IMG/VR virus record: IMGVR_UViG_2740892274_000003 | Source: a virus | Lineage: Duplodnaviria > Heunggongvirae > Uroviricota > Caudoviricetes | Strand: one strand, 5' to 3' | DNA: 9,880 nucleotides | The notes under the pieces: generated by a model | The model's input: only the letters and a program-made list of their open reading frames with translations | What the model was told of the DNA's origin: nothing | Database searches by the model: none | Position numbers and translations under genes: made by a program | Shown: in pieces, positions 184-9,880 of the stretch | Layout of the letters: each line of letters opens with the position of its first letter | How positions within the stretch are numbered: the first letter of the stretch is position 1

Positions 184-1575
184 ATGACAACACCAGTCTG
201 GCGTAATGATGACCTGGAAGGCGCTGTCATTGGCGCATTCTTTCTGCGTGGGGCAGATCATGAAGTGATGGATATTCTGATCACACTACCGGCGGACATT
301 TTTTCTGTACGAGCGTATCGGGATATCTACACAGGCATCTGCAGACAGGCCCGTGTTTCAGGAGTGATTGACCCCGTGCTGTTGTGTAATGAGATGCCGG
401 AACTTGCCCCGGTGATTACTGATACCGGGCGTAAAACCTGGGTGAAGTCTTCACTGGAGCACTATGTTGCAGCGTTGCGGCGCAATGCCGCACTGCGCGA
501 TGCAGAAAAAACACTGAATGAGGCGCTGCAGAAATTACGTGATGCGCATACCTGTGAAGCAGCTGAAGATGCCCTGAAGGATGCGCAGAACATGATGGTC
601 ACACTGTCGACAGGAAAGGGCGTCATTCAGCCGGTACATATTGATGATGTGCTTCCGGAAGTGGTTGAGCGTGTTGAATGCCGGAATCAGGGGCTGGAGA
701 AATCCAGGACGTTGATGACCGGTATTGATGAACTGGACGCAAAAACAGGCGGTATGGAGCCCGGAGACCTGGTATTCATTGCCGCCCGTCCTTCGATGGG
801 GAAAACCGAACTTGCGCTGGACATCATCGACAAGGTGACTGAGCAGGGGCATGGTGTGCTTCTGTTCACCATGGAGATGGCGAACATCCAGATTGGTGAA
901 CGTATGGTGTCTGCGGCTGGAGGGATGCCAGTATCACGCCTGAAATCTGTGGCTCACTTTGAAGATGAAGACTGGGCGCGTTTCTCACAAGGGGTGGGGC
1001 GGATGACCGGGCGCAATATCTGGATGGTGGACCAGGCGAACCTGACCATTGATGAGATATGCGCAACAACGAAACACCATCTGATTAAACATCCGGAAAC
1101 GGCGCTGGTGGTGGTTGATTATCTCGGGCTGATAAAAACCCGAACCACGGGGCGTCATGACCTTGCCGTGGGTGAAATCTCAAAGGGGCTTAAAGGCCTG
1201 GCAAAATCCGGTGGTTTTCCGTTGATTGCGCTGAGCCAGCTCTCCCGCGGTGTGGAGTCCAGACCCAATAAACGTCCCATGAACTCAGACCTGAAAAATT
1301 CCGGAGAAATAGAGGCGGATGCAGACATCATTCTGATGCTTTACAGGGATGAAGTGTACAACCCGGATACACAGGCTACAGGCATAGCAGAAATTAATAT
1401 CACGAAACAACGTAACGGTTCTCTGGGGACGATTTACCGGCGTTTTTATAACGGACATTTTCTGCCTGTGGACCAGGAAAGCGCACAGGTTCTTTCCACC
1501 CCAATGCGGCAGCCCCAGCCGCGCAGATACAGCAATACACGTACCGACAGCAGTAAGATGGAGCGTTTCTTTTGA
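184..1575 (+). CDS. DnaB-family replicative DNA helicase (phage replication module)
   Basis: Translation has a DnaB-like N-terminal domain and a RecA-like C-terminal domain with Walker A (AARPSMGKT) and the conserved KRPMNSDLKNSGEIEADADI / NITKQRNG region. ATG at 184 is preceded by GAGGTG 7 nt upstream. The in-frame GTG at 43 gives a 47-aa extension rich in R/H/C/W that looks like out-of-frame sequence, so 184 is preferred. Confidence 0.85.
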   Translation: MTTPVWRNDDLEGAVIGAFFLRGADHEVMDILITLPADIFSVRAYRDIYTGICRQARVSGVIDPVLLCNEMPELAPVITDTGRKTWVKSSLEHYVAALRRNAALRDAEKTLNEALQKLRDAHTCEAAEDALKDAQNMMVTLSTGKGVIQPVHIDDVLPEVVERVECRNQGLEKSRTLMTGIDELDAKTGGMEPGDLVFIAARPSMGKTELALDIIDKVTEQGHGVLLFTMEMANIQIGERMVSAAGGMPVSRLKSVAHFEDEDWARFSQGVGRMTGRNIWMVDQANLTIDEICATTKHHLIKHPETALVVVDYLGLIKTRTTGRHDLAVGEISKGLKGLAKSGGFPLIALSQLSRGVESRPNKRPMNSDLKNSGEIEADADIILMLYRDEVYNPDTQATGIAEINITKQRNGSLGTIYRRFYNGHFLPVDQESAQVLSTPMRQPQPRRYSNTRTDSSKMERFF

Positions 1576-1829
1576 ACAACCAGACAATGACTTTTACCTC
1601 TGAACAATTGCGTAAACACGCGCAGGAAATGTTGCGACAGGCGGAACAACTGGAAAAAACAGGTGTAACAAAAGATGCCATTCGTCGGGATATGGTGCCA
1701 GCGCTCAGGGAACTGATGCAGGCGAAACATCGCGCACAAAAAGCGGTGGATGAGCTCGTTGATTGTGTGGCAGAGCTGGAAACCAAAGTTGGAAAGTTTG
1801 AAAAAATGGTGCAGGAGGTGCTGCGCTGA
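1572..1829 (+). CDS. hypothetical small protein (85 aa, predicted helical), nin-region-like position
   Basis: ORF sits exactly between the helicase stop (1573-1575) and the rusA start (1829). Its stop overlaps the rusA ATG (TGATG). Start is either TTG 1572 (GGAG about 9 nt upstream) or ATG 1584. No recognisable family by eye. Confidence 0.5.
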   Translation: MNNQTMTFTSEQLRKHAQEMLRQAEQLEKTGVTKDAIRRDMVPALRELMQAKHRAQKAVDELVDCVAELETKVGKFEKMVQEVLR

Positions 1830-2200
1830 TGCGCCATGAGTTTATTTTACCTTATCCGCCGACGGTGAATACTTACTGGCGACGTCGTGGCAGCACATAT
1901 TTTGTATCAAAAGTTGGTGAGCGTTATCGCCGTGATGTGACGCTAATTGTTCGCCAGCAGCGGCTGAAATTAAACCTGTCCGGAAGGCTGGCGATAAAGA
2001 TTATTGCAGAGCCACCGGATAAGCGCCGTCGTGACCTGGACAATATCCTGAAAGCACCACTGGATGCGCTGACGCATGCCGGACTACTCATAGACGACGA
2101 GCAGTTTGATGAAATCAATATTGTGCGCGGTCAGCTCGTTCCTGGTGGGCGACTGGGCGTGAAGATTTATGAAATCACAGGTGATAACGATGGCGCGTGA
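1829..2200 (+). CDS. rusA: RusA-family Holliday junction resolvase
   Basis: 123 aa. N-terminal [11 protein letters not shown] and the central [29 protein letters not shown] match the RusA acidic catalytic motif as I recall it. Position between replication genes and Q is typical. Confidence 0.85.
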
Positions 2201-2576
2201 TATTCAGCAGGTTATGGAACGGTGGGGGGCTTGGGCTGCAAACACTCATGAAGATGTATCCTGGGCGTCGATCGCTGCTGGTTTTAAAGGGTTAATTCCG
2301 TCGAAAGTGAAATCACGCCCTCAGTGTTCTGATGATGATGCAATGATAATTTGTGGCTGTATGGCCCGGTTGAACAAGAAAAATCAGGATTTGCACGATT
2401 TGCTGGTGGATTATTACGTAGGTGGAATGACTTTTATGAGTCTGGCACGGAAACATGGGTGTTCGGATACCTGTATTGGCAAGCGCCTGCAGAAAGCGGA
2501 AGGGGTTATTGATGGCATGTTGATGATGCTTGATATCCGGCTGGAGATGGACAGATACGTAGAACGAATTATGTAG
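2190..2576 (+). CDS. phage late-gene antitermination protein Q, short QuuD/DLP12-like type
   Basis: 128 aa starting [17 protein letters not shown], with a Cys cluster (C-x9-C-x-C ... C-x3-C). Resembles the short Q family of DLP12-type prophages from memory. ATG 2190 has AGGTGA 8 nt upstream; the alternative ATG 2169 would overlap rusA more deeply. Located immediately upstream of a promoter/terminator region and the lysis genes. Confidence 0.7.
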
Positions 2577-2580
2577 GTGC

Positions 2581-2610
2581 TTGACCAGACACATTGTCCG
2601 GGGCTATATT
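2581..2610 (+). promoter_or_regulatory. candidate sigma70 late promoter (PR'-like): TTGACC-18-TATATT
   Basis: -35 TTGACC at 2581-2586 and -10 TATATT at 2605-2610, starting 5 nt after the Q stop. A small hairpin (CGCCAG/CTGGCG, 2618-2635) lies in the initial transcribed region. Confidence 0.35.
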
Positions 2611-2671
2611 CCTCACGCGCCAGCAAAATCTGGCGTCGGGATTGGAACCCCGGATAGAGACCGCGACAGAC

Positions 2672-2693
2672 ACACGCCGCGAGCGTGTTTTTT
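2672..2693 (+). terminator. candidate intrinsic terminator (tR'-like)
   Basis: Stem ACACGC (2672-2677) / GCGTGT (2683-2688), 5-nt loop, followed by TTTTT(A)TT at 2689-2696. Confidence 0.4.
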
Positions 2694-2821
2694 ATTGTCG
2701 TATGCACGCGCACATCTGAATTATGGTGGGGCGCATGGGGGAGCTGAAAAGCTCGCCGGTCGGTTTCCCGGTAGTTCCAACCCTGTGCGTCTCACCACCC
2801 GATGATTGGAACCTGACGGTG

Positions 2822-2850
2822 TTGACAGTTTCAGGTTTGCAGTTTACATT
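2822..2850 (+). promoter_or_regulatory. alternative candidate sigma70 promoter: TTGACA-17-TACATT
   Basis: Consensus -35 TTGACA at 2822-2827, 17-nt spacer, -10 TACATT at 2845-2850 with the key T, A and final T positions conserved. Could be the true PR' or a promoter for the downstream cargo gene. Confidence 0.3.
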
Positions 2851-2885
2851 TCCCCGCGGTGCTCAAAACACCTCGAAAGCGGTAT

Positions 2886-2913
2886 CCACACCCGATAGCC
2901 ATGTGGTTTTTTT
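2886..2913 (+). terminator. weak terminator-like hairpin plus T7 tract
   Basis: CCACA (2886-2890) / TGTGG (2902-2906) with an 11-nt loop, followed by TTTTTTT at 2907-2913. Confidence 0.25.
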
Positions 2914-3056
2914 GTGTCCAGAATTCTTGGTTTATGACCGGGTGTGCGGCTAATACAATACCAGCAATGGAAATACGCCCGCCGACTTTCGACGGTTTTG
3001 AGCGCCCGGTCACCCTCTCAAAAGGGGTAAATCAAAATATTCGAAAGGACATGTCT

Positions 3057-3620
3057 ATGAATCGCACGTCTATTGAAAAACTCCCGTCACTTACGCATAA
3101 CCATCTTCCTGTCATGACAACAGAGCTGCTGGCTGATTTGTACGGAACAGAGCGCCAGCGTTTGACAAACAATTTCAATCGAAACAAAGAACGGTTTATA
3201 GAAGGTAAACATTTTTTCCTGATAGAAGGTGATGCGTTACGAGAGTTGAAGAACGAAAACTCTTTAAGAGTTTCTGTGAAAATTGCCCGTAACGTTCGCT
3301 CCCTCATCCTCTGGACAGAACGTGGCGCAGCCCGTCACGCCAAAATGCTCGAAACCGATCAGGCGTGGGAAGTGTTCGAAAAACTGGAAGACTGTTATTT
3401 CAACCAGAAACAGCCACCAGCGGCACAAAACACATCTATCGAAAATGATGGATGCGCATTACTGAGCCACTTCGATAAACACGGTCAGGTTGAGTTCACG
3501 GAAAAGGTACCCGCCGATGCGATGGTATGTACTCTGGAACGGTTTAAATTTTATCTGGAGCAACACGGGTGGATCGTTGCCCGTAAAGAGCAACTGGTGG
3601 AGCGGTTGATGCGGTTTTAA
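3057..3620 (+). CDS. ORF6N-domain (KilA-N-related, predicted DNA-binding) protein with an unassigned C-terminal domain; late-region cargo
   Basis: N-terminal region LPVMTTELLADLYGTERQRLTNNFNRNKERFIEGKHFFL ... ILWTERGAARHAKML fits the ORF6N pattern (LYG..RLN..RN.ERF...F.L...WTE.GA) as I recall it. ATG 3057 has AAGGA 8 nt upstream; ATG 3051 is an alternative. The longer GTG-2859 ORF has an implausible N-terminal extension. The C-terminal 70 aa are not recognisable. Confidence 0.7.
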   Translation: MNRTSIEKLPSLTHNHLPVMTTELLADLYGTERQRLTNNFNRNKERFIEGKHFFLIEGDALRELKNENSLRVSVKIARNVRSLILWTERGAARHAKMLETDQAWEVFEKLEDCYFNQKQPPAAQNTSIENDGCALLSHFDKHGQVEFTEKVPADAMVCTLERFKFYLEQHGWIVARKEQLVERLMRF

Positions 3621-3696
3621 AAATTTTTTCCGAAAACTTTACGATCGTAAAAAGTTGAATATCCTGTTAAGAGTGGTTACTACGCCACACAGCTTA

Positions 3697-3721
3697 AACC
3701 CGCCGATGAGCGGGTTTTTTT
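3697..3721 (+). terminator. rho-independent terminator after the ORF6N gene
   Basis: Stem AACCCGC (3697-3703) / GCGGGTT (3710-3716), loop CGATGA, then a T-run through 3721. Confidence 0.6.
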
Positions 3722-3771
3722 ATACCTGAAAAACGGCACAGGACGTTAAACGTGCTGGTGGTCAGATGAGT

Positions 3772-3800
3772 TTGCAGATGTGATGACATATGGTTATTAT
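3772..3800 (+). promoter_or_regulatory. candidate promoter for the tRNA cluster: TTGCAG-17-TATTAT
   Basis: -35 TTGCAG at 3772-3777 and -10 TATTAT at 3795-3800; predicted start about 3 nt before the first tRNA at 3810. Confidence 0.35.
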
Positions 3801-3809
3801 TCTGCCTCC

Positions 3810-3886
3810 GGCCCTTTAGCTCAGTTGGTCAGAGCGAGCGACTCATAATCGCCAGGTCGCTGGTTCAAGTCCAGCAAGGGCCACCA
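3810..3886 (+). tRNA. tRNA with anticodon CAT, most like tRNA-Ile2 (ileX/ileZ type); automated tools would likely label it Met
   Basis: Cloverleaf traced by hand: acceptor GGCCCTT/AAGGGCC, anticodon loop CTCATAA, T-loop TTCAAGT, discriminator A, encoded CCA. Anticodon stem-loop GCGACTCATAATCGC resembles E. coli ileX from memory. Confidence 0.85.
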
Positions 3887-3887
3887 A

Positions 3888-3964
3888 CCACCACTAGCTC
3901 ATCCGGATAGAGCATCAACCTTCTAAGTTGACGGTGCGAGGTTCGAGTCCTCGGTGGTGGGCCA
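3888..3964 (+). tRNA. tRNA-Arg (anticodon TCT, reads AGA)
   Basis: Acceptor CCACCAC/GTGGTGG (unusual C1-G72), anticodon arm TCAAC-CTTCTAA-GTTGA, T-arm CGAGG-TTCGAGT-CCTCG, discriminator G, encoded CCA. Confidence 0.8.
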
Positions 3965-3966
3965 GC

Positions 3967-4042
<76 letters not shown>

Positions 4043-4045
4043 TAT

Positions 4046-4120
<75 letters not shown>

Positions 4121-4733
4121 GCGAGATTTGAGACGAAGGTTGTTATTTGCACTGACACAATATTGTGTGGGAATGTCTGACTCCTTACCATCTCCTGTTC
4201 TGTGATGTTGTTTTGTTGCAGTTCCAGTGCTCTTTTTTCAGCACCAGAATGGTGCATTGTCGGTCAGGTTACGTAGTGAACCTCTGGCAGGGGACTGATG
4301 ATTCATCATTCTGGTGTTGTAAATATCTCTTCGGACAACTTACAAAATATTCTAAGCAAACCCCGGGAACACACTCTTAACTGCCTTGGCTGGCGGTTTT
4401 TTGTACAGTGCTCGGTATGTGTGAGCTGGAAATCAGATTTTGCATGGACTGGAATCATGCTGTTATTTAGGGGCGAAGAACTGGCTTTTTCTTCCGCCTT
4501 CTCACCAGTAACGATTAGAAAAATAATGAAATGCCCCCCTCCGGGGAGGAGGACCGTAGAAAAAAGGACCCGCCAGCAAAAACATTGGGGATGAACAGCT
4601 TTCGCTACTCAGATTGCTGGCGGGTAAAGTTCCTCATGAATTAAGAATGCTACGCGATCTTTTTTAATGGAAATGAAAATTATTGTCAATTAGTCGTGCG
4701 TGTTTTTTCATACAATATTGGTAAAGGTGATTC

Positions 4734-4768
4734 AGGCCATCAGAGTTTTGCTGATGGCCTTTTTTCTT
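4734..4768 (+). terminator. strong rho-independent terminator immediately upstream of the holin
   Basis: Perfect stem AGGCCATCAG (4734-4743) / CTGATGGCCT (4751-4760), 7-nt loop, then TTTTT(C)TTT. Confidence 0.65.
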
Positions 4769-4800
4769 TCCGATAGCACAGGTCTGTCGGGGGGCGGGAT

Positions 4801-5016
4801 ATGTATCAGATGGAAAAAATATCAACAGGCATTGCCTACGGCACCTCCGCCGGCAGTGCCGGCTACTGGTTTTTGCAGTGGTTGGATCAGGTCAGTCCAT
4901 CACAGTGGGCTGCGATTGGTGTGCTGGGAAGTCTGCTTCTGGGGCTTCTGACTTATCTGACAAATCTGTATTTCAAAATAAGAGAAGACAAGCGTAAGGC
5001 TGCGAGAGGTGAATAA
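4801..5016 (+). CDS. S: class II holin (phage 21 S21-type pinholin), dual-start motif
   Basis: 71 aa; [66 protein letters not shown] matches the S21 pinholin from memory. Two in-frame starts (M1, M4). Stop overlaps the endolysin ATG (TAATG). Confidence 0.9.
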
Positions 5017-5171
5017 TGTCGCCATCATTACGCAAGGCTGTTGCAGCTGCTATTGGTGGTGGGGCTGTTGCTATAGCATCTGTGTTAATCACTGGCCCAG
5101 GTGGTAACGATGGTCTGGAAGGTGTCAGCTACATACCATACAAAGATATCATTGGTGTATGGACTGTATGT
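5016..5171 (+). CDS. R: SAR endolysin (phage 21 R21-type lysozyme), 5' part only; remainder lost in the N run
   Basis: N-terminal 52 aa: Gly/Ala-rich SAR membrane segment ([18 protein letters not shown]) followed by [23 protein letters not shown], which carries the E-D-T catalytic triad spacing known for R21. The sequence runs into N at 5172. Confidence 0.8.
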
Positions 5172-5522
5172 NNNNNNNNNNNNNNNNNNNNNNNNNNNNN
5201 NNNNNNNNNNNNNNNNNNNNNNNNNNNNNNNNNNNNNNNNNNNNNNNNNNNNNNNNNNNNNNNNNNNNNNNNNNNNNNNNNNNNNNNNNNNNNNNNNNNN
5301 NNNNNNNNNNNNNNNNNNNNNNNNNNNNNNNNNNNNNNNNNNNNNNNNNNNNNNNNNNNNNNNNNNNNNNNNNNNNNNNNNNNNNNNNNNNNNNNNNNNN
5401 NNNNNNNNNNNNNNNNNNNNNNNNNNNNNNNNNNNNNNNNNNNNNNNNNNNNNNNNNNNNNNNNNNNNNNNNNNNNNNNNNNNNNNNNNNNNNNNNNNNN
5501 NNNNNNNNNNNNNNNNNNNNNN
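5172..5522. other. assembly gap / masked region (351 N)
   Basis: Continuous run of n. Removes the 3' two-thirds of the endolysin and the 5' parts of Rz and Rz1. Every six-frame ORF crossing it is an artefact. Confidence 0.99.
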
Positions 5523-5699
5523 GCAGTCTGTCAGTCAGTGCGTGAAGCCACCACCGCCTCCGGCGTGGATAATGCAACCAGCCCCCGACTGGCAGACACC
5601 GCTGAACGGGATTATTTCACCCTCAGAGAGCGGCTGATGACGATGCAGATGCAACTGGAAGGGGCACAGGAGTATATCCGCACTCAGTGCATTAAGTAG
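5523..5699 (+). CDS. Rz: Rz i-spanin, C-terminal 58 codons (start lies in the gap)
   Basis: AVCQSVREATTASGVDNATSPRLADTAERDYFTLRERLMTMQMQLEGAQEYIRTQCIK is near-identical to the lambda Rz C-terminus as I remember it. Confidence 0.8.
   Translation, partial: AVCQSVREATTASGVDNATSPRLADTAERDYFTLRERLMTMQMQLEGAQEYIRTQCIK
5524..5637 (+). CDS. Rz1: Rz1 o-spanin, C-terminal part, embedded in the +1 frame of Rz (start lies in the gap)
   Basis: QSVSQCVKPPPPPAWIMQPAPDWQTPLNGIISPSESG, proline-rich, matches the lambda Rz1 C-terminus from memory; nested inside Rz as expected. Confidence 0.75.
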   Translation, partial: QSVSQCVKPPPPPAWIMQPAPDWQTPLNGIISPSESG

Positions 5700-5741
5700 C
5701 CTTTTTATCGTGGTAAACATTTCGCAGGGTATGAGGTATTT

Positions 5742-6092
5742 ATGCCATCACTAATCCCACGTGCCTGCCGTAAGCGTGGATGTGCAGGTACAACCACAGA
5801 CAGTTCGGGTTACTGCGATAAACATCGCGGTGAAGGCTGGGTGCAGCACCAGCGCGGACTGAGCCGCCACCAGCGTGGCTATGGCTCAAAATGGACGGTG
5901 ATTCGTGCCCGTATTCTGAAGCGCGATAAAGGTCTGTGTCAGTTGTGTCTGCGTGTCGGTGTGGTGAGCGAGGCGAAAACCGTCGACCACATCATCCCGA
6001 AAGCGCATGGCGGAACAGACGCAGACAGCAACCTGCAGAGTCTGTGCTGGCCCTGCCATAAAGCGAAAACAGCGCGCGAACGAATCCGGTGA
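5742..6092 (+). CDS. HNH endonuclease (terminase-associated type)
   Basis: 116 aa with Cys pairs CRKRGC...C and CQLC, then DHIIPKAHGG...N...CWPCHKAKT (HNH motif). GAGGT sits 6 nt before the ATG. Lies directly upstream of the terminase genes, as in HK97-like cos phages. Confidence 0.85.
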   Translation: MPSLIPRACRKRGCAGTTTDSSGYCDKHRGEGWVQHQRGLSRHQRGYGSKWTVIRARILKRDKGLCQLCLRVGVVSEAKTVDHIIPKAHGGTDADSNLQSLCWPCHKAKTARERIR

Positions 6093-6110
6093 TAATTATT
6101 CTCACTTGTA

Positions 6111-6174
6111 GGGAGGGGCGGGGCAAATCCCTGTGACCTGACGTCTTCCGGACTGCCCGCCCCATCGTTTTTTT
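6111..6174 (+). promoter_or_regulatory. GC-rich inverted repeat plus T-tract in the HNH-TerS intergenic region; candidate terminator and/or cos-site element
   Basis: GGGGCGGGGCA (6115-6125) pairs with TGCCCGCCCC (6154-6163) with one bulged G, about 28-nt loop, followed by TTTTTTT at 6168-6174. Confidence 0.3.
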
Positions 6175-6213
6175 ATACCCGCGAAAAATGAAATTTAACC
6201 AGGAGTGCCGCAT

Positions 6214-6708
6214 ATGGCTGGAACGGCGGGGCGTTCCGGGCGTCGCCCCAAGCCAACGGCGCGCAAGGCGCTGGCCGGAAACCCCGGCAAGCGAGCCCTG
6301 AACAAAGATGAACCTGTTTTTACGCCCATCAAAGGTGTTGAGCCACCAGAGTGGTTCGCTGAAGAAGATCTCCCTCTCGCCACGATCATGTGGCAACTGA
6401 CAACCAAAGAACTCTGCGGTCAGGGCCTGCTGTGCGTGACTGACCTGGCGGTACTTGAGCGGTGGTGCGTGGCCTATGAGTTCTGGCGACGTGCCGTGAA
6501 AAATATTGCCATACAGGGCAACACCATCACCGGTGCAATGGGCGGCAGGGTCAAAAATCCGGAGCTGACCGCCAAAAAAGAACAGGAGTCCGAGATGAGC
6601 AGCACGGGGGCAATGCTCGGACTCGACCCCAGCAGCCGCCAGCGTCTGATTGGCCTGGCGGGGCAGAAGAAAGCCACTAACCCGTTTCTGAAAATTATCG
6701 AATCATGA
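6214..6708 (+). CDS. terminase small subunit (P27 family)
   Basis: [34 protein letters not shown] is the characteristic N-terminus of P27-family small terminases. AGGAG lies 8 nt before ATG 6214. Stop overlaps the TerL start (ATGA). Confidence 0.85.
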
Positions 6709-8438
6709 GCCGGAAATCTTACCCCAACGTAAATGCTGCAAATCAGTATGCCCGGGATGTCGTGCGCGGAAAGATTGTTGCCTGCCAGTTTGTGATTCAG
6801 GCCTGCCAGCGCCATCTTGATGACCTGATGGCGGAAAAAAGTAAGTCGTTTCGTTACCGCTTCGACAAGGACCTGGCTGAACGGGCCGCGAAATTTATTC
6901 AGCTGTTGCCGCACACCAAGGGGGAGTGGGCATTCAAACGGATGCCCATCACGCTGGAGCCGTGGCAGCTATTTGTGATCTGCTGTGCGTTTGGCTGGGT
7001 CAATAAAGGCACCCGGTTGCGCCGCTTCCGGGAGGTGTACACCGAAATCCCCCGTAAGAACGGCAAATCAGCAATCTCTGCCGGTGTTGCCCTGTATTGT
7101 TTTGCCTGTGATAACGAGTTTGGCGCGGAAGTGTATTCCGGTGCCACGACAGAGAAACAGGCGTGGGAAGTCTTTCGCCCGGCGCGACTGATGTGTAAAC
7201 GCACACCCATGCTGACGGAAGCGTTCGGGATTGAGGTTAACGCCTCAAACATGAACCGTCCGGAGGATGGCGCGCGGTTTGAACCGCTGATCGGCAACCC
7301 AGGTGATGGTTCATCACCCCACTGTGCCGTGGTTGATGAATATCACGAGCATGCCACCGATGCGCTTTATACCACAATGCTTACCGGGATGGGGGCGCGA
7401 CGTCAGCCACTGATGTGGGCCATCACCACCGCCGGGTACAACATTGAGGGGCCGTGCTACGACAAGCGGCGGGAAGTCATCGAGATGCTCAACGGCTCGG
7501 TGCCTAACGATGAACTGTTCGGGATCATCTATACCGTTGATGAAGGTGACGACTGGACCGGCCCGCAGGTGCTGGAAAAAGCCAATCCAAATATTGGCGT
7601 GTCGGTTTATCGCGAATTTTTGTTAAGTCAGCAGCAGCGTGCGAAAAATAACGCCCGTCTGGCAAACGTCTTTAAAACAAAACACCTCAATATCTGGGTG
7701 TCGGCGCGTTCGGCGTATTTCAACTTGGTGAGCTGGCAGAGCTGCGAGGATAAATCACTGACCCTTGAGCAGTTCGAGGGGCAGCCGTGCATTCTGGCCT
7801 TTGACCTGGCGCGTAAGCTGGATATGAACAGCATGGCGCGACTTTATACCCGCGAGATTGACGGTAAAACGCATTACTACAGTGTGGCCCCGCGTTTCTG
7901 GGTACCGTATGACACGGTGTACAGCGTCGAGAAAAATGAAGATCGACGGACAGCCGAACGCTTTCAGAAATGGGTGGAAATGGGCGTTCTGACCGTTACC
8001 GATGGTGCGGAGGTGGATTATCGCTACATCCTCGAGGAGGCCAAAGCGGCGAACAAAATCAGCCCGGTCAGTGAGTCACCCATCGACCCCTTCGGGGCGA
8101 CCGGGTTGTCACATGACCTTGCTGATGAAGACCTGAATCCCGTCACTATCGTCCAGAACTTCACCAATATGTCCGATCCGATGAAAGAGCTGGAAGCAGC
8201 GATTGAATCGGGACGTTTTCATCATGACGGCAATCCCATCATGACCTGGTGTATCGGCAACGTGGTCGGCAAAAACATGCCGGGTAACGATGATGTGGTG
8301 AAACCCGTCAAAGAGCAGGCGGAAAACAAAATCGATGGTGCAGTTGCGCTGATTATGGCGGTTGGCAGAGCCATGCTGTACGAGAAAGAAGACACGCTGT
8401 CTGACCACATTGAGTCCTACGGGATCCGCTCGCTTTAA
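6705..8438 (+). CDS. terminase large subunit (HK97-like)
   Basis: Uninterrupted 577-aa ORF with ATPase-like N-terminal region (EIPRKNGKS) and nuclease-like C-terminal region. Translationally coupled to TerS. Confidence 0.95.
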
Positions 8439-8449
8439 CTGAGGTAATT

Positions 8450-8632
8450 ATGATCATGCTGATTCTCGCGCCTCTGGTGGGCGTGCTGGGTGCGCTTTTG
8501 CTGGCGTATGGTGCCTGGCTGATTTATCCCCCGGCGGGTTTTGTTGTTGCCGGGGCGCTGTGCCTGTTCTGGTCGTGGCTGGTGGCGCGATATCTCGACC
8601 GTACACGGCAGTCTGTCGGCGGAGGTAAATAG
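8450..8632 (+). CDS. small hydrophobic protein (60 aa, two predicted transmembrane helices)
   Basis: [49 protein letters not shown] then a basic tail. GAGGT precedes ATG 8450. Its TAG stop overlaps the portal GTG start (TAGTG) and its last codons contain the portal Shine-Dalgarno GGAGGT. Confidence 0.5.
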
Positions 8633-9788
8633 TGTTCTTTTCGGGATTATTTCAACGAAAAAGCGATGTGCCGGTGACCACGCCAGCAGAACTGCTGATG
8701 CTATCGGGCTGTCATACGACACCTATACCGGAAAGCGGATCAGTAGCCAGCGGGCCATGCGCCTGACGGCGGTCTATTCTTGCGTCAGGGTGCTGGCAGA
8801 GTCTGTTGGTATGCTGCCCTGCAGTCTCTACAAAATCAGCGGTACCCTGAAAACACGGGCGGTGGATGAACGACTGCATAAGTTGGTTTCGGCAAAACCT
8901 AATGGCTACATGACACCGCAGGAATTCTGGGAGCTGGTTATTGTCTGCCTGTGTCTACGGGGGAATTTTTACGCCTACAAGGTAAAGGCACTGGGAGAAG
9001 TGGTGGAGCTTCTTCCGATAGATCCGGGCTGTGTGGAACCGAAGCTGAACAGCCAGTGGCAGCCGGTTTATCAGGTGACGTTTCCGGATGGTTCCGTGGA
9101 TGTGTTGACCCAGAATGAAATCTGGCATGTGCGCACCCTGACGCTGGATGGACTTGTCGGGCTGAATCCCATTGCGTATGCGCGTGAGGCCATTTCACTG
9201 GCAGCGGCAACCGAGGAGCACGGTGCCAGGTTGTTTAGTAATGGTGCGGTGACATCCGGTGTGTTGCGTACGGAACAAAAGCTCACGCCGGATGCTTACG
9301 AGCGTCTGAAGAAAGATTTTGAGGAGTGTCACACGGGGCTTGGCAATGCTCACCGCCCGATGATTCTGGAAATGGGGCTGGACTGGAAGTCGATGGCGCT
9401 GAACGCCGAGGACAGTCAGTTCCTGGAAACCCGCAAGTTTCAGCTGGAAGAAATCTGTCGTCTGTTCCGGGTGCCGTTGCACATGGTGCAGAACACCGAT
9501 CGCGCCACCTTCAACAATATCGAAGAGCTGGGGCTGGGATTTATCAACTATTCACTGGTGCCGTATCTGACCCGCATCGAACAGCGGATCAACACCGGAC
9601 TGGTACGAAAAAGTAAGCAGGGCGTTTATTACGCCAAATTTAACGCCGGGGCGTTACTGCGCGGGGATATGAAGTCCCGTTTTGAAGCCTACGCCACCGG
9701 GATCAACTGGGGAATTTACTCTTCCAATGACTGCCGCGACCTGGAAGATATGAATCCGCGTCCCGGTGGTGTAATGCCGATCAGTTAA
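8632..9788 (+). CDS. phage portal protein, HK97 family; apparent frame discontinuity near 8705-8720 (sequencing error or pseudogene)
   Basis: GTG 8632 with GGAGGT 5 nt upstream opens a frame reading [26 protein letters not shown] and stopping at 8764-8766. The -1 frame reads YTGKRISSQRAMRLTAVYSCVRVLAESVGMLP and continues as a portal-like sequence to 9788. Restoring one base near 8710-8714 joins them. Alternative intact start: ATG 8757. Confidence 0.75.
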
Positions 9789-9821
9789 GGATCAGTTGAC
9801 CGATCCAGTGGCTGTGTAAGA

Positions 9822-9856
9822 ATCCGGAAACGCTCACTTGTTTCCGGATTTTTTTA
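9822..9856 (+). terminator. terminator-like hairpin plus T7 tract after the portal gene
   Basis: Stem ATCCGGAAAC (9822-9831) / GTTTCCGGAT (9840-9849), 8-nt loop, TTTTTTT at 9850-9856, immediately followed by ATG 9857. Confidence 0.4.
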
Positions 9857-9880
9857 TGCACATTGGACAGGCTCTTGATC

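Follow-up and report, generated by a model that had tools for sequence, protein, structure and literature searches.

Gene organization at the terminase–portal junction

The window analysed in this study is the whole of a 9,880-nucleotide (nt) stretch of DNA from a virus of the Caudoviricetes (IMG/VR record IMGVR_UViG_2740892274_000003). We considered a small open reading frame (ORF) at positions 8450..8632 of the plus strand, between the genes of the terminase large subunit (TerL) and of the portal protein. It starts with ATG and encodes a 60-amino-acid (aa) predicted inner-membrane helical hairpin orthologous to YmfR (YmfR family, PHROG 502, IPR020297). The TerL gene upstream (6705..8438, plus strand) is intact; its 577-aa product was taken from the ORF list and matches PHROG 9 (E-value 3e-195) and the TerL_ATPase and TerL_nuclease models of Pfam. 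From the TerL stop codon TAA (8436-8438) there are 11 nt to the ymfR start, and they contain the Shine-Dalgarno sequence GAGG (8441..8444, plus strand), 5 nt ahead of the ATG. At the other end, the ymfR stop codon TAG (8630-8632) and the portal start codon GTG (8632-8634) have a G in common, forming TAGTG at 8630-8634, and the Shine-Dalgarno sequence of the portal gene, GGAGG (8621..8625, plus strand), lies within the ymfR codons for G57–G59. The portal start of phage phiP27 is annotated at the base equivalent to GTG 8632, and the peptide read from this codon is the N-terminus of an HK97-type portal protein.

The same arrangement was found in 147 distinct homologous junctions. The TerL stop is followed by 9–12 nt with GAGG or AGAGG at the equivalent place and then by ATG; the portal start is embedded in TAGTG, TAATG or TGATG, and its ribosome-binding site is GGAGG, GGGGG or similar. 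This geometry is also kept in distant high-GC relatives. The initial annotation of the ORF, made from the sequence alone, had reported its Shine-Dalgarno sequence, the overlap of its stop with the portal start, the portal Shine-Dalgarno sequence in its last codons and, overall, a tight coupling into the packaging operon; all of these hold at the positions given above, and the coupling recurs across the junctions.

Identification of the ORF as ymfR

The protein encoded in the window is identical to YmfR of Escherichia coli K-12 (b1150, cryptic prophage e14) at 58 of 60 positions (97%, E-value 2e-40), and its residues 1-55 match PHROG 502, 'membrane protein', with an E-value of 2.8e-28. By sequence, the ORF corresponds to ymfR in a prophage of the e14/ST64B/phiP27 type; the gene has been named already and hence is not new. 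In K-12 MG1655 the gene is annotated as 'IPR020297 domain-containing protein YmfR'. RefSeq uses the name ymfR in E. coli; of 5426 complete genomes of this species, about 1600 (about 30%) have the junction. The e14 order is terminase remnant aaaE, ymfR, portal remnant beeE, with the 11-nt gap and the 1-nt overlap seen in the window. The closest known relatives of the window's protein are K-12 YmfR, phiP27 L37, ST64B Sb3 and SfII_03. K-12 YmfR shares with it the length, the 11-nt gap and the 1-nt portal overlap, and the match of the window's protein to PHROG 502 is full-length. The K-12 copy differs by two residues in the variable tail, nothing of substance; the prophage that contains the copy of the window is interrupted a short distance downstream by an insertion sequence.

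The records of phiP27 (L37), ST64B (Sb3), SfI, SfII and 118970_sal3 describe the homologue as a putative integral membrane protein; those of SfIV, PY54 and SfV leave it unannotated. Four records (ON470584.1, ON470603.1, ON470580.1, PQ793804.1) name it 'head-tail joining protein W'; these labels look like annotation by position, after the lambda order A-W-B. Three junctions about 96–97% identical to that of E. coli and Shigella are filed under other hosts: a metagenome-assembled genome of a 'Bacillota bacterium' (JAEWTL010000102.1, our locus L005), Edwardsiella hoshinae (L007) and the 1764-nt record OR844959.1 ('Enterococcus phage Efm 3-10'). These host assignments are probably due to contamination or misassignment, with recent transfer as a possible explanation for Edwardsiella.

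Scans of the ORF with Pfam, NCBIfam and PADLOC gave no model, only sub-threshold matches to unrelated membrane families: Pfam at E-values up to 1 returned four of these, all weak, and PADLOC at E-values up to 10 returned no match. Literature searches on ymfR, b1150/e14, the phiP27 integral membrane protein and small membrane proteins between TerL and portal yielded nothing on function; ymfR occurs there only in gene lists, e14 deletions and expression tables, or as an unrelated match of the letters. One of the expression studies reports that under an SOS-inducing drug ymfR goes up by 4.5 log2 units along with other e14 genes (PMC10012262).

Coding conservation

About 290 homologous loci were gathered from GenBank phages, GTDB genomes and IMG/VR, and provided 113 distinct DNA versions of the enterobacterial type, on which the following statistics are based. 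The median pairwise ratio of nonsynonymous to synonymous substitution rates (dN/dS) over codons 1-48 is 0.19, with dS of about 1.1. Variable sites are distributed over the first, second and third codon positions as 30/18/44, in phase with the plus-strand ORF. Glycines G11, G14, G21, G30 and G35 are unchanging, each being encoded by all four Gly codons; L6 and L37 are encoded by four codons, and the invariant Gly, Leu and Pro residues of YmfR in general use 3-4 different codons. Tail residues 50-57 are nearly free to vary, and the terminal Gly-Gly is kept. Thus ymfR is a real protein-coding gene under purifying selection, and the coding conservation at homologous TerL–portal junctions that had been proposed as a check on the initial annotation is present.

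Hydropathy, predicted helices and conserved motif of YmfR

Kyte-Doolittle means over 15 residues exceed 1.9 along YmfR residues 1-26 and reach 2.2 around residues 31-45; the grand average of hydropathy (GRAVY) is 1.16. The hydrophobic stretches of the window's YmfR span approximately residues 2-25 and 30-47, with YPPAG between them and a basic tail after the second. AlphaFold2, run on a 27-sequence alignment, models helices at residues 2-25 and 27-57 with a mean predicted local distance difference test score (pLDDT) of 74. Hydropathy and model together bear out the description of the ORF as a hydrophobic 60-aa protein with two helices.

All elements of the protein are given below on the plus strand. 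Helix 1 (residues 2-25, 8453..8524), delimited by hydropathy, AlphaFold2 and column statistics, has small residues at every fourth position (A7, G11, A15, A/S19) as well as the invariant G14 and G21. Residues 19-22 (8504-8515) are compatible with the -3/-1 rule of signal peptidase I: residue 19 is small (A or S), and an invariant G21 precedes A22. The family hallmark, defined from the alignments, covers residues 21-35 (8510..8554), that is, the end of helix 1, a tight turn and the start of helix 2. It is the most conserved portion throughout the superfamily, and the motif is visible in the 50%-identity representatives. Helix 2 (residues 30-47, 8537..8590; hydropathy, AlphaFold2 and alignment columns) carries G30, A34, G35, C38 and S42, and its W41 is invariant in enterobacterial members. 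Both helices show small-xxx-small faces, typical of tightly packing or oligomerising helices. The basic C-terminal tail (8591..8629) evolves fast: columns 51-57 hold 7-12 residue types each, G58/G59 are almost fixed, and this Gly-Gly near the end, the only conserved feature, coincides with the portal ribosome-binding site. Since the N-terminus has no charges and the tail is basic, the positive-inside rule places both ends in the cytoplasm. We infer an N-in/C-in hairpin with the conserved GAW-IY-PAGF segment at the periplasmic face of the inner membrane.

Two further features were considered and rejected. A holin-like dual start at Met1-Ile2-Met3 does not recur, as most homologues begin with MFLI or MILM and there is no charge between the methionines. 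The Pro-Pro pair as a conserved ribosome-stalling site regulating portal synthesis is not upheld by distant members, which have a single proline (Y-x-PAGF). A search of PDB sequences with the YmfR family profile gave nothing under an E-value of 0.87, so that no related solved structure was found. Foldseek comparison of the AlphaFold2 model with PDB and BFVD gave no match at E-values ≤0.001; for a 60-aa hairpin such a search is uninformative, because only generic helical hairpins were matched.

Breadth of the family and its genomic position

A profile search of 1.84 billion representatives returned 426 clusters (50% identity) at E-values ≤0.001, nearly all of 45-90 aa. Their shared core, YGAW[LM]IYxPAGFIxxG, reaches from the last part of helix 1 across the turn into the first part of helix 2; the cytoplasmic helix ends and the tails vary between members. 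High-GC environmental phages share about 21% identity with the window in TerL and 25-34% in the portal, and still have the ORF between the two genes, mostly overlapping both. For all six distant representatives that were looked up, the next gene is a Phage_portal gene, and the preceding one is TerL on the contigs that extend that far; on the fuller contigs the order is HNH, Terminase_4, TerL, ORF, portal, S78 protease, HK97 capsid. Every member with an inspected context adjoins the portal gene on its 5' side and follows TerL wherever the contig reaches it. These comparisons indicate that the YmfR family is large and old and that its slot is held by one protein family across very distant phages. 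The hosts of these phages are very different, and a slot occupied by a single family throughout is unlike one for variable cargo. Proteins P0158, P0181, P0187 and P0210 are tandem duplications, with two hairpin units per 102-122 aa protein; on its short contig, the gene of P0181 (locus L318, 64-399) overlaps by 1 nt with the next one, which encodes 230 residues and carries no family annotation.

Shigella phage SfV (L003, NC_003444.1) has most of the window's TerL in common and a different portal. At 2289..2450 it contains an unannotated 53-aa two-helix ORF (MKSLIADVIGLAGFGLLTCGVYLQFGMAPALILSGALLLVGALAMARRGTRAA), which overlaps the TerL stop by ATGA and belongs to PHROG 7105. The SfV portal start is annotated at GTG 2392, probably too far upstream; GTG 2440 behind AGGGGG fits better. 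The SfV hairpin ORF matches PHROG 502 with an E-value of 5.7e-6, and alignment of PHROG 7105 with the YmfR family by hhalign gave a probability of 82% (E-value 1e-5, 45 columns). PHROG 7105 hairpins are thus likely remote homologues of YmfR. The PHROG 7105 ORFs in SfV, Ralstonia phage YO374_2 and Pseudomonas phage PARCL1pr resemble ymfR in the TerL/portal slot, size, two helices, overlaps and basic tail, and differ in the turn (LQFG-x-AP or similar, not IYPPAGF) and in the portal subtype. Similar ORFs occupy the slot in Ralstonia YO374_2, Vibrio K265, and Pseudomonas PARCL1pr and VW-6S. The PHROG 4810 ORF of Pseudomonas phage P7869 is like YmfR in position, size and the two hydrophobic helices, but has no detectable homology to it (hhalign 1.3%); this hairpin may be an independent solution or may have diverged past recognition.

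Linkage to the portal type and optional presence

Linkage was studied on 70 loci (2415 non-independent pairs), using the N-terminal 250 aa of the portal and the C-terminal 250 aa of TerL. Identity in YmfR goes with identity in the portal segment (Spearman correlation 0.68) more closely than with that in the TerL segment (0.39). In pairs with YmfR more than 90% identical, portals are always at least 85% identical, and TerL identity goes down to 34%. The pattern indicates that YmfR is inherited with the portal type, while TerL is swapped around it. The final few codons of TerL stay conserved even where the TerL classes compared have 36% identity, which suggests that recombination occurs within these codons and leaves the hairpin on the portal side. 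Among phage records, 28 have a portal with 60% or more identity to that of the window, and the ORF is present in all of them: 25 were detected by tblastn, YeP3 was read from the sequence, and YeP1 and YeP2 were inferred from their near-identical layout.

The gene is nevertheless optional. In Pseudomonas phage vB_PaeS-D14E (L322, 560-700) TerL is joined to the portal by TGATG with nothing between, whereas VW-6S (L323, 420-660) has a 63-aa hairpin ORF that overlaps TerL by ATGA and the portal by TGATG. The TerL C-termini (HGIRKL in D14E and HGIRTL in VW-6S) and the portal N-termini of the two phages are homologous, and their portals are closely related. As D14E lacks the ORF despite such a portal, we regard the hairpin gene, on this comparison of genomes, as dispensable and cleanly lost in at least one lineage; the TGATG and ATGA border overlaps could permit its precise loss or gain. 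In HK97 TerL (542..2056) and portal (2056..3330) are directly coupled, in agreement with the remark in the initial annotation that canonical HK97 is not known to have a gene at this position. Neither room for a hairpin ORF nor a hidden one was found in HK97, mEpX1, Klebsiella ST13-OXA48phi12.2, Burkholderia vB_CB2a, Pseudomonas BR143a, Moraxella Mcat21, Streptococcus Javan499, Bacillus J5a or Vibrio 1.004.O, the nine hairpin-less phages sampled, all of which have related portals. The ORF had been described as inserted between the two genes; this is right in the sense that the gene is optional (D14E without it, VW-6S with it) and holds only in that limited sense. The gene is absent in HK97 and D14E, but the slot has the same family in very distant phages, which looks like old vertical inheritance with losses.

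Portals behind a hairpin ORF mostly start with hydrophobic residues: VFFSGLF, MFFPNMF, VLLDALF, MIFDTLF, MFFPALF, MILERIF and MFLRQFF. The N-termini compared were those at position 8632 of the window, 3423 of L001, 2465 of L300, 2440 of L003, 1093 of L306, 4174 of L313 and others, with phylogeny uncontrolled. The nine sampled portals without a hairpin ORF start otherwise, for example with MEEPKYT, MAKNKQQ or MNDENWW. The hydrophobic start could reflect shared ancestry or a constraint of the T-rich start region.

Proposed role

The reading that we prefer, and consider moderately probable, is that ymfR is a promoterless late gene of the packaging/head operon, coupled at both ends, linked to the portal, optional, and encoding an accessory membrane factor of the portal/head module. 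Taken alone, the last of these points is only tentative, and we would call it somewhat unlikely rather than likely. Phage T4 gp40 aids assembly of the portal protein gp20 at the inner membrane, and P20 and P22 of phage PRD1 are small membrane proteins of the packaging vertex; an accessory role in the portal/head module is favoured because of these precedents and of the linkage to the portal. The proposed course of events is as follows. Ribosomes finishing TerL would go on to the hairpin and the portal, and because translation is probably coupled, synthesis of all three proteins would be late and at similar, low levels. YmfR would enter the inner membrane as a hairpin, its two ends remaining in the cytoplasm. 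There it might offer an inner-membrane site for initiation of the portal ring or prohead, or for the portal chain still being translated from the coupled mRNA. YmfR would thus be a non-essential protein of lytic growth and not cargo expressed in lysogeny.

Several points weigh against this reading. The conserved part of YmfR is predicted to be periplasmic or in the outer leaflet, the wrong side for a cytoplasmic portal; the cytoplasmic tail, the sole part able to touch the portal, is short and variable. Binding to the portal is poorly matched by this layout. Helix 1 could be a cleaved signal peptide instead of a stable transmembrane helix. Co-inheritance with the portal could result merely from a recombination hot spot in the last TerL codons. 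Finally, D14E and the nine phages listed above have related portals and no hairpin.

The gene has been annotated since the genome papers of K-12, phiP27 and ST64B and is ordinary as a discovery. It is, however, a named K-12 gene that stands for a very large and old hairpin family fixed before the portal, and it encodes a membrane protein from within a cytoplasmic packaging/head operon. The present analysis adds the identification of ymfR, the extent and motif of the family, its strict pre-portal position, the portal linkage, the pairs of relatives with and without the gene, and the annotation errors. The family is open to genetics: the plaque-forming Shigella phages SfI, SfII and SfIV have the gene, and natural relatives with and without it exist.

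Alternative explanations

The initial annotation had noted that small membrane proteins in structural operons are sometimes superinfection-exclusion or toxin-like cargo. Genes of this kind, known as morons, stand out by a GC content that deviates, by a promoter and a terminator of their own, and by being expressed while the prophage is repressed (PMC3594210, after Juhala et al. 2000). The archetypal moron, HK97 gp15, is an inner-membrane superinfection-exclusion protein of the YebO family encoded in the late structural operon (PMC3594210). A consensus scan, which weak promoters could escape, found no promoter-like site on either strand within or next to the ymfR ORF, and a scan for terminator-like sites flanking it on its strand was likewise empty. 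The GC content of ymfR is 0.59, against 0.49-0.61 in TerL and portal, and is no anomaly; own promoter, own terminator and deviant GC, by which morons are known, are thus lacking. Scans with Pfam, NCBIfam, PHROGs and PADLOC gave no match to YebO, toxin, defence-system or holin families, and none of the marks of a type I toxin (a family match, an antisense RNA or a transcription unit of its own) was seen in the scans. With none of these three hallmarks, no family matches and one family filling the slot across distant phages, the suggestion of exclusion or toxin-like cargo is not supported.

The specific version in which the hairpin protects the host by blocking DNA entry of incoming phages, as HK97 gp15 does, be it late in infection or in the lysogen, is in our opinion unlikely. 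YmfR is, like gp15, a small inner-membrane protein within a structural operon (PMC3594210); PHROGs assigns PHROG 502 to the category 'moron, auxiliary metabolic gene and host takeover'; close relatives differ in whether they have the gene; and the conserved face is predicted to be periplasmic, where incoming tails act. Moreover, ymfR is intact in decayed prophages with broken neighbours (K-12 e14 and the window), which is weak evidence for a benefit to the host, although a 183-nt ORF easily survives by chance in remnants. Against these stand the lack of a promoter, a terminator and a GC difference, hallmarks listed in PMC3594210, and the lack of similarity to YebO/gp15 or any PADLOC model. A promoterless gene should be silent in a lysogen, and in e14 ymfR behaves as induced prophage genes do (PMC10012262). 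Exclusion genes are usually lineage-specific, whereas the same family is found here in phages of very different hosts. One of the ymfR copies in Shigella flexneri (L013, CP182557.1, approximately 3000-3182) is frameshifted in its first half, and a second copy there (L008) is intact.

A holin- or antiholin-like hairpin that adjusts the timing of lysis, by perturbing membrane energisation or the phage's own holin late in infection, seems to us rather improbable. In size, two helices, predicted N-in/C-in topology, basic C-terminal tail and late operon YmfR resembles class II holins; the small-xxx-small faces of both helices point the same way, and dispensability suits an accessory timing role. 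However, there is no holin, antiholin or spanin match in Pfam or PHROGs, and hhalign with the window's own class II holin (4801-5016) gives a probability of 0.6%. Holin, endolysin and Rz spanin are already encoded about 3 kb upstream (the lysis genes occupy approximately 4800-5700, and ymfR is about 2.7 kb further on). In the inspected contexts the gene is always beside the portal and never in a lysis cassette, and the strongly conserved turn motif is unusual for holins.

It is very improbable that the peptide has no role of its own and that the ORF is only a translational spacer, which would pass ribosomes leaving TerL on to the start of the portal and determine how much portal is made. The coupling is tight at both ends in all lineages, and the sole conserved feature of the tail is the portal ribosome-binding site, both as a spacer would have it. 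Yet the amino acids are under strong purifying selection, with invariant residues using all synonymous codons, a 15-residue motif is kept across the 426 clusters, and HK97 and D14E couple TerL to the portal directly with no spacer.

A chance ORF, or a signal coming from the opposite strand or from an RNA element, has practically no probability left: minus-strand ORFs do exist at 8435..8722 and 8454..8606 and the SfII record has a terminator annotated within the homologous ORF, but substitutions track the plus-strand codon phase, the family is conserved as protein down to 40% identity, and RNA folding is at the level of shuffled sequences (z 0.15), so that this explanation is already refuted by the conservation pattern, the constraint being at the protein level. 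The rho-independent terminator annotated inside the SfII homologue was rejected in its own right, since the minimum free energy of the RNA of the matching segment equals that of shuffles (the same z) and a scan of the strand is empty.

The decayed end of the prophage

Downstream of ymfR the window contains an HK97-type portal pseudogene (8632..9771, plus strand; Pfam Phage_portal, E-value 2e-107, and TIGR01537), whose 3' end is cut by an insertion sequence. When aligned to phiP27, ST64B and L004, an E. coli relative, it lacks one base after approximately position 8693. The frame opened by the GTG stops at 8766, and the remainder of the portal runs on in the frame of 8541..9788. The same 1-nt deletion is found in IMG/VR contig L016, and four IMG/VR contigs (L016-L019) have an identical small ORF; therefore the deletion looks like a mutation of the lineage and not a read error. 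The end of an IS4-family insertion sequence, identified from identical chromosomal loci, occupies approximately 9772..9880 on the plus strand, with the transposase start near 9856. In loci L293, L294 and L297 an Nterm_IS4/DDE_Tnp_1 gene directly follows the portal fragment. Two bacterial chromosomes, CP104423.1 and CP022457.1, match the window with 100% identity over 2725-5171 and 5523-9880 (L292, L295). Thus ymfR is the last intact gene of a truncated prophage here, and since the portal is broken and the prophage truncated, its coupling to the portal in the window serves nothing now.

The interval 5172-5522 is a masked run of 351 N. An ORF at 5016..5699 (227 aa) that could be taken for an endolysin-Rz fusion is an artefact of this run, as the identical loci have separate lysozyme and Rz genes.

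Comparison with known systems

HK97 gp15 and YmfR are both small inner-membrane proteins encoded in the late structural operon of an HK97-type phage. The gp15 gene differs in having its own promoter and terminator, deviant GC content, expression in the prophage, a place in the tail operon and bacterial YebO relatives (PMC3594210). K-12 YmfR and its phiP27, ST64B and SfII counterparts, described above, are the same gene as that of the window.

Class II holins (S21-like, Pfam PF04971) are late products of about 60-70 aa that combine two transmembrane helices with a basic cytoplasmic tail. Size, two helices, basic tail and late timing are what YmfR has in common with them; they have no sequence or profile similarity to YmfR and are encoded in the lysis cassette, and YmfR has a conserved turn motif. 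Lambda gpW is a soluble head-completion protein, whose small gene lies, like ymfR, between A/TerL and B/portal. YmfR differs from it in being a membrane hairpin, and has no match to the gpW family in Pfam or PHROGs.

T4 gp40 and PRD1 P20/P22 have no sequence relationship to YmfR and a different genomic context. The likeness is that of small membrane proteins working with the portal or the packaging vertex, and is a functional analogy only. It leads to a more speculative idea, to which we assign a low probability: hairpins of the YmfR type and of PHROG 7105 may be membrane-embedded helpers of portal or prohead initiation throughout a large branch of HK97-like phages, with the hydrophobic portal start (MFFSGLF, MFFPALF, MIFDTLF and similar) as their partner. 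A hairpin translated just ahead of the portal would bring the coupled mRNA, the nascent portal or the assembling ring to the membrane. If true, this would be a membrane-nucleated step like that of T4 gp40 in phages thought to build their heads wholly in the cytoplasm.

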